From Leucoraja ocellata (taxonomy: Eukaryota): a DNA stretch of 64,000 nt. How positions within the stretch are numbered: the stretch's first letter is position 1; the number at the start of each line of letters is the position of its first letter. A model generated the notes under the pieces. It was not told the origin of the DNA, searched no databases, and was given only the letters and a program-made list of their open reading frames with translations. Location: assembly GCA_036785375.1 (NCBI GenBank), contig JAWMAR010000151.1, forward strand, positions 3,100,001-3,164,000, given 5' to 3'. A program made the translations under genes and the position numbers. Of this stretch, positions 5,847 to 12,044 are shown piece after piece.

Positions 5847-5960
5847 CTGCAGAAGGAAAAGGGAGACACTGTTTGTCCTCTAGGCTGCAATTTATGTGGG
5901 GGGAGGAGTCAGTCTCAGTCCGAGATGTAGATGGTGAACAGGAAGGGTAACAGTACTTAC

Positions 5961-6069
5961 TCTCCAGTAGCCTCCAACTCACAGATCTCAAAGAATACCA
6001 GCAGGTCATATTTGCCTTGACACTGCCCTGCAGTGGGGCGGCTCATGGTGCTCAACTTGGTCGCTGGCA
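5961..6069 (-). CDS. KIF1A: KIF1A exon: (V)[35 protein letters not shown](E)
   Basis: 109 nt; TTACAG acceptor, AGA|GTAAGT donor; phase 1-2. Confidence 0.96.
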
Positions 6070-9026
6070 CTGTAAGGACAATAATCATTAGTCAGGGCAA
6101 TGGAAGGAGCCCAAGTGTGAGTGCAAATCTTGCAACTGGTTCTGTCACTAGCTTGCAACAATTACTGTTCAAAAAGCTGCTACTTTGTTAAGTGGCAAAA
6201 TTGGCATGCAAAATATGAATCAATCTTCACTTTATTTTTCAAAATGCGGATTGTGACAGGTTCAGTTCTACAATTGTGCAATCATTCTTTTTCACAATGG
6301 GACCAGGAAGAGTAGCTTGGCTGGGATAATTTTCTTGGATCAAGAGAGAAACTGGGGGGAAATTTAATTGCCGTTTAAAATCATGGGTGGCGTGAACTGA
6401 AATAATCTTAGCAGGGAATTTAGAAACAAGGGGGGGTGATTTGTTAATTGGATTAGGGGAGTTACAAAAACAAATTTGAGTGTTAGGGATCTGGAATTTA
6501 CTGTCTGGAAGGGTGTTGGAGGCAGAGCCCTCATTTAAACATTGCCTGGATGACTACTTGAGGTAGGTGCAGGGCCAAGGATTAGGATTGGGAGAGAAAA
6601 TGTCATCTTAAGTCTATGTGCGTGAAGATGTTCAGTTAAGTGGATTTCTGCTCCACACTTTCTAAGATAATTGGGCAGCTCAAGGAGTCTCTGGATTTTG
6701 CAGCGGTTTAGAGATTAGATTCACAGTGGGCTGAAAGACTCTTACCACACTAAAACTGACAAACAAAATCACAATTTCTTACACAAGATAAAAATGACCC
6801 AAAACACAGCAGACACTCAGAAGAATTAAGAGTAAAGACCACACAGCACACAGCATTGACCGATCTCACTCCCGTTTCATCTTTCTTAAATGTGTTCTTC
6901 CTTTTTCACACATGTATTAACCACCTGGAGCAGAACTTGATTTTCCTCAGAAGGACCATCAAACCTGAGATGTTCTCTGCTCCACTTGTTTATGTGTTTA
7001 ATTTATCATTCAACAAATCTAATTTAGTAATACAAATGTTTTTTTGTAGCAGCCTATCTTTGTGGCATCACACCCCACCTATCTCTCCAGCTCCTGCTTT
7101 GCTGCATAGGAACTAAATTCAGGGAATGTACATCTTCCACTAAATTTCAACTTTCACTCTTGGACCTGTCATTCTCAGTTAGAAAACAAAAATTCACATC
7201 CCACCCCTAACAATTCATTCCTTCTTACATTAAAATGCAAATCTGTACATTTCCCTGCAGCTTCATGTTCTCTTCTGAAAGGATCGAGTCACCTTCCGAA
7301 GATTTGCGCACACAATGACAGATTCAATCACACCAAAATCTGATTAGAATGAGTACTCTGATCACTATGAAAATGTCACTGTGCAATGGGCCAAGAGCAC
7401 TCTGTGGCTCGACGTTAGCTTCTTGAATTAAAATTAACATGTAAAAATTAAACAAAAGGGCACCTGTTGGGGTGTGATTGAATAACAGCAATGGACTAAG
7501 TGTGCATAGTTTTCAAATTGCATTGGCTATCAAGCAGCTCAACTGCGAATCAGGTTTTGGGTTGTCAATTGCGAACGGTGCATTACTGTAATCACTTCAG
7601 TCTTGCTCTCCATTGACAAGAGCCACTGAGGACTCCTCTACTACCTTCTATTGTCAATGTAATTAAAAAATAAACCTTAACTTCACATCATCACCAAATT
7701 GATTTGGTCCTTCTATCTACCTTGGAGGAAACTTCCTTAGACTTTCTTAGACTTCACCAAGGGTTTTCAATTTCCAAATTGTACATGAATCACAAATATT
7801 GGCATCAATATCAAATATTTCAAAGTTATTCTGTAGTCACATCTATTTGCAATTTAGTTGCACACTCTTGTCCACTGTTGTATGTTACTGAGTAAGACAC
7901 AAGGGCACAGGACTGAGAAATGACACACTGCTGCATCCTGTGGGAAATCACTTTAAATTGGGTATATCACCAGGGGCAAGAGAAGTGATGGGAATAAAAC
8001 AGGGAATCAGCATCTTCAGGAAGTATGCAGAAATTTATCGACTGAGATTCCATCAGTAAACATTATTTTTCTTAGATTATCCCAAAATCAAATTACAGAA
8101 AGAACACAAAGTAAGGAAAATAGAATATCCAAGGCCTTTCAGAGTCCAGCCACTCACCACTGCAATGTATGTTCAGTGTGAAAGAAAATGGTCAGAACAT
8201 AGTTATGGGGTACATTACACATTCATATAAGACAGGAAGAGGGGAAGGTGAGGTACCCAACTGTGCCTGGAGATAGATCACTGAACTGAATCAGGCACAG
8301 TAAATATCCAAAAATCTGGTATCCAATTATTTGAAAACCCCTATGGTTTAGTTCAGCATCTGCCTCACTCATTTGTGTACTAAATCTTCCGTATCCATTG
8401 AATTACTATTAATGTACCATCCAGATGCTTGTGAGGTTATCTGTGTCGTTTTTAATGCATAGACAGGGTGTGTGACCAGACCTCTGCTCAGCGTGTGGAA
8501 TATCTCGGGTCAGGGGCATGAGTGTAGGTTTGTGGCTGGATCCAGGGTCTGGGGTGCTTGAATGTGTCAACTTGTTTTGATTTTCGAAAAGCTGAAACTT
8601 ATTAGCTCCTGTTTCTTGTGTGACCTTTAAACATGCTAGAGAGATTCCTGCTCCCTTTAAACTTATGGAAATTGAATACTTTATTTTTAATACATATGTT
8701 TATTTAAAAAAGTGAATTAAAAGTGTGTGATACCAGCATTGTACTGAGGATGCTGGATTACCACATTGTCCTGTGAAGTTTCATGTATAACATGTGTGGG
8801 AGAATAATTAGTTGACCATACAGGGTTTTAAAGTTAAAACATACAGGAGGAGTGTTGAAGCATCCAGTAAAGCACAAAGAGTTGAGTAGATGGAGCACAC
8901 AACTAGGTAAGGTGAACACACTCATAGTTTAAGAAATGGGCCATGAATTTGGCAATAATATGTGGAGCTGTTTTGGGGTAAAGTATCCAATTGAAGTGAC
9001 TTCCAACAGGCTCCTTTGCTACGAAC

Positions 9027-9221
9027 CGTGTGTCTGGGCTTTCATGACAGCACAGCCAAGGGAAGAGGGAAGGGGCAAGTGGACATAATCCTCCTCCTCG
9101 GAGAGATAGGAAACAGCAACACTAGCAGCAGACACGGCGTGCATGGACAGCGAGTCCAGGAATGGGAGGTTCAACCCATCAGGCATCAGGTGTTTAATTA
9201 AAACAAGTGCTTTCTCATTCT
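9027..9221 (-). CDS. KIF1A: Candidate alternative KIF1A cassette exon (E)NEKALVLIKHLMPDGLNLPFLDSLSMHAVSAASVAVSYLSEEEDYVHLPLPSSLGCAVMKAQTH
   Basis: 195 nt, phase 1-1 matching the host intron, no stop; T-rich tract plus TTTTGCAG acceptor; ACG|GTTCGT donor; not a KIF1A segment I recognise. Confidence 0.5.
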
Positions 9222-11988
9222 CTGCAAAATGTGACATGGGAACAGAAAATAACAGAAATCATAACATTGCACCAACTCAGACAGGCTGCCTAATGAAGAA
9301 AGAAACGTGTTAGTATTCCCAGTCCCCATCCACTGCCCCACCAAGACCAGACAATTGCTGCAGGTTAGAGTGTGCGAGAGAAAACGTGAATGCTGTCCTT
9401 GGATATTGTCTAGCCCTGGGACGCTTATCTGATTTCAGGTGCTTTTACTTCTGATAAATGAGACCTGACCTATCTATTCTCATCTCTCTACCTGCAATAC
9501 TCAGTAAAACAATGCAGTTCTTAGAAAAGGTGGCATTGTAGATTAATGAACATGCCCTAATATCATGTGCTGCTGTCAACAATCTGGCAATTAAGTCCTC
9601 CAAGCAGTATCTGGCAACTAGATCCAGTGAGACTGGTTTCTCAGATGCGACATGCTGAAAGGTTGATTTTATGAAAATAGATCATGTTCGAGATTTGTTT
9701 GGGTGGATTTTCACCAGTCTCGAAAATGGTTTTTGTAGTTACAGATTAATGATTTTTTCCTGGCATCAGGTGCATGCCTAGTGATGTCACTATTCACACC
9801 AGGGCTGTTATTGCCCACTCTGACATTAATTGGAACTTAAAACTCCACATTGGGGATCTTGTGGAAGACTCACTAAAAACTGGAACACATTGTGCTTGCC
9901 TGGGTATTGTTCTCACAGCCGGCATTGGGGGAATTGACCAGGCATCTTCAAAATTAACAACGAACCGCACAGGCACTTTCCAAAGTTAACGATCTTGAAC
10001 TAACAGGGAATGTTTCTCTCAGCATTCAGCTTCTGAGATACCAATTCAAAGGGTAAACATGGTATGACTGCTGGCAGCATACAGTTGCCATAGGCATCAT
10101 TACAGCCATGGTTGGCCTTAAAGACCTCAGGTGAAGCCATGTTCATCCATGGAGACAACTCCAGAGATCCATGGATAGTGTCACTGGAGGCATAATTACA
10201 GTCATGCTGGCCATTCAGGATGGGCCAGACCTCAGGAGAAGTTCATTATTAGAGACAATTCCCAGTGAGTCTTTGAGATGCCAAAATACATGGTCCTCCC
10301 AGACAACAATGTACATGTCAGCTCAGGTTTCCATGGCTATTGTCACTGAAAACAGAAAGACCTTCAATTATGCTCATGTCTAGACCGTGTTGTTCACTGA
10401 TCGGTCATGTTTCTTAGTTTTCTGACAATGTATCATTTCTTAAGCAGACCCTTGCCAACCCTCTTAATTTAGCTCATTGTGGAGTAGAGAGGTTACTCAG
10501 ACTATCTGTTCACATAGAAATTGTTTAATCTCTTGTTTTTGGTGCGAAGGAGACACCTGGACAGCACTGTTGGCTTCCAACCAATGCAGGCGATTATGCA
10601 CTGCCTCACACTTCATGTAGAGCTCCCTTGAATAACCTGGACTGGTTTATTAATAGGAAAAGTTTCTGCTTCATCCATATGCAAGCTTTGACAACAACGA
10701 GAAGAATATCACGTTTCTGTGAAACACAAGTCATTTCCTTTCCTGAGGGAGTCAGGACTTCTGATCAAAACTGGAACTCTCTCCCATCTCCATGGTGCCT
10801 GTTGTTTAAACCCTGATACTTCTATGTTTCTCTTGCTCAGCAAGTAGACTACATTAACCCGAGTCTGATTCCATCAAGAACCACATAGATCCCGTTTCAG
10901 GGGGATCACCAGCCTAAGCTAGCTTCAAAAATGTGTTTTTAACTTTCTCTTTTTTTTGAGTAAGTCCTAATCTGGTACAAGCACAAAGCATGACAAATGC
11001 CTGTGCACTGAAAATAGACAAAATCTAGTTCTGGGCTCAGATTCTTTCCAGCGTGGTTTTTACGGTCTTCATTATTGATAAGCTCCTCATTCCAAATTTG
11101 TTTAACTAACTTAAGATGACTTGTGGAGGAAGATGAACTCATGTCTGCATTATTAAGTCCAAGTTTTTGCTAATGGATGCCGAAGTGTTGATGTTAGAAC
11201 GGTGCAGGGCACCAAGGATGAAGTTCAGGATTACCTCAATGATCACAGGATGAAGTTAAAAGTTGCCCTTGGACTGATCGAGACAGACTGAGGCTGATAT
11301 TGATACCAGGTTAAGCTTTAAGGTTAATACTTGGAAACCCAACCTCTCCACTGTAGCCTGGTTTCAATCTCAGTAGAAAGCCTGAGGTCAGAGATTGGCA
11401 CTGATGAATGTGGTGGTAGTTTCAGAGTCAAGGTCTTTGTCAATGTAGAGAGTATGGCAGTTAAGCGGCTGAGGGAGAGTGGATGGGAAGCCTTGATTAT
11501 GTCTGAAACATGCAATGCCACTCACTGATGTTATAGAGAGAATGTTTGCCCATTTTCAATCTGATATGTACAAACTAAATTTCTGAGCATGTCCATCAAG
11601 ATCTTTGCATTACTCTTGCCTCCTTCCTTCTCTACTACCCTGAAGTTGCTGTCTCTTGCTCCAGTTTGATGGTTTCCCACAGGCGACCTGATACTCTCGA
11701 GCCTGAGGGACTAGTGGACTGAGCACAGGACCGGCATAGGACTCAGCTATAACAGGACCAGCACCTCCAACTCATCATCAGTCACTGTTGGTGACTGCAA
11801 TGAAATTGAGGTTTTCTAATTCACAAATATAAGGGACCTGATGTCATCTGAGATATCCGAAAATTCACCTTCACCAATAAATTGATTGGGTAAAGGATAT
11901 TGTATACAATAAGTGACTGCTTTTTGCTGTTTCCCAGTTAATTGTCACTAAGTTCATCAATAAAGCATGAAACGTTCAATTGTCTCAC

Positions 11989-12044
11989 CTGGTTTACTCA
12001 AGGGCATCACCCGAGGGAACTGCCGGCGAGAAGGTCTTAAAGGA
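11989..12044 (-). CDS. KIF1A: KIF1A exon: PLRPSRRQFPRVMPLSKP
   Basis: 56 nt; TCTCAG acceptor, CAG|GTGAGA donor; phase 2-1. Confidence 0.95.

Follow-up and report, generated by a model that had tools for sequence, protein, structure and literature searches.

A very probably ancient optional exon upstream of DUF3694 in Leucoraja ocellata KIF1A, with a counterpart in a likely KIF1B paralogue

A 195-nt segment of the Leucoraja ocellata gene for KIF1A, a kinesin-3, is very probably a genuine and ancient exon. It lies in a window of 64,000 nt (the whole stretch of DNA analysed; contig JAWMAR010000151.1, positions 3,100,001 to 3,164,000) that covered the middle of the gene on the minus strand, where exons were mostly 85-100% identical to Scyliorhinus torazame KIF1A and the FHA-region, KIF1B-domain and DUF3694 segments followed in order, with matches to named isoforms. 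The exon is already annotated in other vertebrates and apparently unstudied, no publication describing an exon before VPATKL having been found in the literature searched, which covered few subscription journals. What is new is the copy in the window, a copy in a paralogue, the weak donor that the two share, and conservation that follows predicted helices rather than a motif resembling the LIR/AIM of ATG8-family binders. The window exon and its surroundings comprised the following features:

9027..9221, minus strand: KIF1A cassette exon, 195 nt, 65 codons, phase 1-1; orthologue of the insert in teleost and chicken isoforms
9222..9261, minus strand: polypyrimidine tract and CAG acceptor; the AG is retained in organism B (run X2)
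9021..9029, minus strand: weak donor ACG/GTTCGT, 5/9 matches to CAG/GTAAGT
11989..12044, minus strand: upstream exon ending PLSKP, spliced directly to 6069 in X2 and X10
5961..6069, minus strand: downstream exon starting VPATKL, identified by exon match and by the skip junction in runs X2 and X10

On the minus strand, TTTTGCAG directly preceded the segment 9221..9027, which ended at ACG/GTTCGT, and exons 12044-11989, the segment and 6069-5961 together gave a frame that was open throughout, with phase 1 at both ends. The initial annotation had proposed a cassette exon here, and its acceptor, donor, coordinates, strand, frame and 65 stop-free codons were all confirmed on the sequence; the segment had a single match in the source genome. 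Two weak matches in that genome (L003 and L004) contained stop codons and were rejected (E 0.5 and 4; profile scores 7.7 and -0.9 bits). Within the 5919-nt host intron, a filter for AG..GT segments of 45-400 nt that kept the frame and lacked stops returned 9221..9027 as the sole candidate, a count that is weak on its own because the donor pattern had been widened so as to let the GTTCGT donor pass. Besides an acceptor with a pyrimidine tract, a weak GT donor and an intact, stop-free frame, both splice forms of a cassette were represented: the skipped form by the 11989-6069 junction in runs X2 and X10, from other organisms, and by catshark RefSeq isoforms, and the included form by annotation in orthologues, with both forms in four teleosts (these annotations being predictions). 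The exon had also been placed in a linker just before DUF3694. It does lie upstream of that domain, but less closely than this implies, since in protein P0002 the insert occupies 1124-1188 and DUF3694 begins at 1225 by Pfam, 36 residues beyond the end of the insert. In the 1684-aa catshark isoform the insert position is 1108/1109. Over 9222-9325, about 100 nt of intron 5' of the acceptor, likeness to organism B was about 88%, while no other part of this intron was matched at 85%, and this conserved flank is a possible splicing-control element; no enrichment of YCAY or TGCATG was found around the KIF1A exon. A 31-nt piece at 5917-5947, in a 114-nt intron, matched X2 and X10 contigs with unrelated flanks and is probably a short repeat.

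A search with the exon peptide yielded 46 candidates, of which a single one matched, a gene model from S. torazame with 84% identity over all 64 residues. This model (P0001) demonstrates conservation and not expression, because it is a partial, unnamed prediction in which the upstream exon is seemingly replaced by read-through of the pyrimidine tract. With the catshark region and its flanks as query, we took the best 120 of 8000 scored proteins, and in 105 of these an insert of 64-73 aa stood exactly between PLSKP and VPATKL. For 101 the insert was 65-73 aa between clean anchors; inspection identified as carriers P0001 (the query), P0007 and P0077, whose anchors were unclean, and a second copy of the region in P0003. 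Teleosts accounted for 90 of the 105 carriers, chicken isoforms for 11 and sturgeon models for 2, the others being 1 quail model and the query itself, and the 15 proteins among the best 120 that skipped the exon were all Scyliorhinus RefSeq isoforms. Ranking by score favours carriers in such a list. A less biased sample, the 54 teleost members listed from four clusters of 168, divided into 22 that included and 32 that skipped the exon, and both kinds of isoform were annotated in Rhinichthys, Maylandia, Gasterosteus and Esox, where the RefSeq X isoforms are database predictions. The window exon was 44-55% identical to fish inserts and 31-33% identical to bird inserts; frame, length, AG and core residues were intact in both the window and the catshark model. 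Annotated teleost and chicken proteins with inserts at this very junction place the window exon far beyond chance, so that the cassette exon first proposed is borne out and is older than had been guessed.

When 1.84 billion representatives were searched with a profile, 30 matches were obtained, 29 of them genuine and all 29 unspliced genomic frames; the other, the repeat protein P0205 (15 stretches), was dropped as a chance sum over repeats. Divergent versions of the exon, unlike both the teleost and the bird form, occurred in P0198, P0202 and P0204. Teleost inserts came in a 65-aa form (P0004) and a 71-73-aa form (P0005-P0115) whose difference was confined to the beginning of the insert, which suggests that teleosts have a second acceptor 6-8 codons farther 5'; in the window there is no AG at that place. 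Bird copies (P0087-P0097, P0116, P0200) had lost the first-helix pattern, with Pro, His and Cys instead, and kept the second block and the KAQKP end. P0001, P0002 and P0003 are flawed gene models, the latter two having some segments in duplicate and names that bear a contamination flag. The initial annotation treated this exon as not known from mammalian KIF1A, and no mammalian copy turned up in either the profile search or a search with the chicken exon, but neither search was sensitive enough for loss to be concluded. The chicken-exon search returned 12 of 286 candidates, from chicken and quail only, and says little on mammals because even the fish orthologues fell below its threshold.

When the source genome was searched with the downstream exon, one paralogue was found, on contig C29, which we take to be KIF1B from its sequence features and from its having such a tail. 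Its matching intron contained an unannotated counterpart:

L007:6410-6210 (= G000:C29:2975909-2975709), minus strand: counterpart exon, 201 nt, TTTCAG acceptor, ATG/GTTGGT donor, in frame

The KIF1A exon profile matched this exon over its full length within the paralogue's intron at 18.7 bits, against a maximum of 4.2 bits in 200 shuffles of the intron (140 of which gave any match), and hhalign aligned the KIF1A and paralogue exons with 95% probability (E 2e-8) at 23% identity. Sturgeon P0003, where its flanks are of the paralogue type, carried a 67-aa insert similar to the paralogue exon and equal to it in length. Because the counterpart lies in the same intron and in frame, the simplest reading is that one exon was likely present before the KIF1A/KIF1B split. 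The 200 nt 5' of the paralogue exon held one TGCATG and 8 YCAY, where 4.15 of the latter were expected from the intron average.

The donor of the window exon matches CAG/GTAAGT at 5 of 9 positions, compared with 6-8 in six neighbouring exons. Past the exon end, the 29 genomic frames read through into Gly-Trp in 26, Gly-Leu in 2 and Gly-Arg in 1, and a Gly-Trp read-through fixes donor positions +3 T, +4 G and +5 G, as in the paralogue (G/GTTGGT), with which the window donor has +3 T and +5 G in common. Since this weak GTT-type donor is conserved, the retention of a non-consensus site for so long suggests regulated, partial inclusion.

Conservation within the exon was counted over 66 distinct homologous peptides, which are mostly teleost and hence not independent. 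S25 and A35 were kept in all 66, P13, D22, H27, A32 and A61 in 64, A28 and S37 in 63, I8, L11, L24, A31 and V58 in 62, and C56 in 61, with a peak at residues 22-39. The exon can thus be divided as follows:

9175..9216, minus strand: codons of residues 2-15 (EKALVLIKHLMPDG), first conserved block; amphipathic predicted helix and Pro, from a low-confidence model
9103..9156, minus strand: codons of residues 22-39 (DSLSMHAVSAASVAVSYL), the most conserved block; predicted helix, abundant in small residues
9076..9099, minus strand: EEEDYVHL, LIR-like motif of the window species, not conserved

AlphaFold2 modelling of the zebrafish region (9 sequences; mean pLDDT 30.7) placed helices at both conserved blocks with low confidence, and the first block had a hydrophobic moment of 0.4-0.5 in the window, zebrafish and the paralogue. 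From that low-confidence model and the hydrophobic moments, the conserved part is predicted to be two helices. Neither a Pfam family nor a usable ESM Atlas match was found for the exon, nor a solved structure matching the surrounding 351 aa. Matches of the exon to WD40 proteins in the PDB were rejected as chance sums, in which 21-residue stretches worth 2-6 bits each had been added over identical repeats and no full repeat of about 40 residues scored alone.

Use of the exon was examined in four sequencing runs, of which X2 and X10 are contig sets from two other organisms that we guess to be RNA, one is a 1-read run and one is DNA-like. In none of them was a junction found between the exon and a neighbouring exon, and the only junction seen was the skip, 11989-6069, at depth 595 in X2 and 54 in X10. 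Skipping is thereby shown to dominate in X2 and X10; the absence of inclusion does not follow, because rare forms are lost from contig sets and these came from unspecified tissues. An X2 contig of depth 15 over 9087-9325 crossed the acceptor unspliced, with the AG kept and a single indel, in the intron, and its exon part had 9 changes, 6 of them non-synonymous and one at P13. From about 6% of run X9 (raw reads), 1 KIF1A read was obtained. Half of the search words were present in X1, and this was rejected as evidence of a spliced exon: the run covered the exon together with 23 nt of intron and further stretches of intron but no constitutive exon, so that X1 is likely DNA.

Our leading reading, to which we give about even weight, is that the window exon is the orthologue of an optional KIF1A exon and acts as a regulated splice switch that retunes the tail, through fold-back or through fold-back and binding together, rather than through LC3 binding. 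Inclusion would place about 65 further residues between the exon ending PLSKP and the one starting VPATKL; the weak donor would keep inclusion low and restricted by cell type; the predicted helical pair may alter fold-back of the tail or adaptor binding; and a 65-residue module at the joint of middle and tail could lengthen or prop that joint. In the accessible part of PMC6077247, rodent KIF1A 657-1105 is reported to bind liprin-alpha, TANC2 and calmodulin, and also the 1105-1698 fragment, and the longer fragment 657-1698 no longer binds liprin-alpha or TANC2, the sites for both partners being hidden by the mutual binding of the two parts. If rodent numbering carries over, the place where the two halves meet is where the exon lies, 1105 being a construct boundary, and it is this position that leads us to favour a tail switch over a pure adaptor site, near-silence, an LIR or chance. 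A KIF1A hinge exon that alters motor activity offers a precedent (PMC12436618, accessible text), and the available portion of PMC9314371 reports a MATH domain after the MBS domain, with the suggestion that KIF1A/B have it too.

It is also conceivable, if somewhat improbable, that the exon is real and its helices merely provide a new binding site for some adaptor or cargo specific to a cell type, with fold-back unchanged. D22, S25 and H27 are invariant or nearly so and surface-like, the amphipathic predicted first helix is kept in the first half of the exon of both paralogues, and the region falls inside the cargo-binding tail (PMC6077247, accessible part), but the Pfam, PDB and Atlas searches gave no match and the loss of the first-helix pattern in the bird copies counts against such a site. 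We judge it unlikely that ray-finned fish and some tetrapods use the exon while it is nearly silent or decaying in sharks, where slow evolution or constraint at the DNA or RNA level would have kept it. The skip-only junctions of X2 and X10, the omission of the exon from 15 of 15 listed catshark RefSeq isoforms, the share of non-synonymous changes in X2 and the similar conservation of the upstream intron flank would all be expected of such an exon. Set against them are the intact frame, length, AG and core residues in the window and the catshark model, the intronic position of the sole X2 indel, the intact paralogue exon in the source genome, and the limits of contigs from unspecified tissues noted above.

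An LIR core has the form [W/F/Y]-x-x-[L/I/V] with acidic or phosphorylatable residues before it, and the window exon contains such a core (YVHL) after an acidic run (SEEED). The initial annotation had accordingly proposed that inclusion couples KIF1A directly to LC3/GABARAP membranes through an acidic LIR, a proposal that was not supported and that we now regard as very unlikely. EDYVHL also fits an extended LIR pattern; shuffles of the window peptide gave a core with at least two acidic residues before it in 3% and the extended pattern in 9%, but the bare core in 62%, and 30 bare cores occur in one catshark isoform that skips the exon. The motif shares with ATG8-family binders its acidic residues followed by Y-x-x-L, and differs in being putative and not conserved across orthologues: Y45 was kept in 1 of 66 homologues, from catshark, with no aromatic residue there in bony fish, birds or the paralogue, and the catshark core, YAPL, fails the extended pattern with Pro at its third position. 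Cores of LIR type within positions 40-52 occurred in 4 of 67 sequences (the window, catshark, P0003 and P0196), and in P0003 and P0196 no acidic run stood immediately ahead of the core. No stretch of the exon varies more than the one containing EEEDYVHL, and the corresponding region of the zebrafish model (mean pLDDT 30.7) had neither helix nor strand. An LIR cannot explain the retention of the exon because its Tyr is not conserved, and may at most be lineage-specific. KIF1A is reportedly required for neuronal autophagy, according to one study. A link of KIF1A to neuronal autophagy, which would favour an LIR, is also made in the accessible part of preprint 10.64898/2026.07.22.740140, in which the word "LIR" does not appear; the exon data themselves add no new link to autophagy. 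That the segment is a chance AG..GT open frame without a role, as the lack of an inclusion junction in the runs examined might be taken to mean, is scarcely credible, being refuted by orthologues at the same position across jawed vertebrates and by the paralogue.

The tail of KIF1A and KIF1B decides the vesicle cargo of main axonal motors, and an exon that both paralogues have retained from early vertebrates onward indicates where that tail has a functional site. The tail switch can be extended to a bolder form, which we regard as doubtful yet worth stating: an undescribed switch older than the duplication and common to KIF1A and its sister motor, in which the conserved weak GTT donor would gate a module of two helices that either opens the tail or brings in an adaptor in particular neurons, and which would have been kept from sharks to birds and, in mammals, lost or left unannotated and overlooked by KIF1A/KIF1B disease sequencing. 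In zebrafish or chicken used to model KIF1A disease, tail isoforms may be made that are missing or unannotated in mammals.

Several known optional segments invite comparison, one of them within the window itself:

29190-28876 in the window, with the matching end at L009:1493-1428 in the paralogue, minus strand: poly-Asp/Glu alternative exon, ending in a second DPFYDR; matches chicken KIF1A X1

This poly-acidic exon resembles what we take to be exon 25b of the human disease literature; like the window exon it is large, optional, located in the tail and found in both paralogues, but it differs in position and in its poly-acidic composition and is unrelated. The closest relatives of the window exon are the teleost and chicken RefSeq KIF1A isoforms (XP_021332797.1 from Danio rerio and XP_025009317.1 from Gallus gallus), which have the same junction, core and C-terminal KAQ end, whereas the LIR-like Tyr is absent from them and most teleost isoforms begin 6-8 residues earlier. 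Further small optional segments inside DUF3694 (of QFLDSDMP- and SISLG-type) varied between isoforms in P0063, P0052 and P0097. A KIF1A exon linked to lateralised behaviour in a cichlid (PMC13646608, accessible part) is likewise a case of alternative splicing that affects the KIF1A tail, in the brain of a fish, but is described as lying inside DUF3694, whereas the window exon ends 36 residues earlier; by that description the two are probably distinct, the supplement giving coordinates of the gene rather than of the exon, and one of the small DUF3694 segments may be the cichlid exon. Exon 13 of Kif1a, an FTO-regulated hinge exon (PMC12436618, accessible text), is likewise an optional in-frame linker exon with a matching KIF1B region, and its inclusion alters motor conformation and activity; it adds about 10 aa beside the neck, whereas the window exon would add 65 aa in the tail, with a role that is predicted.
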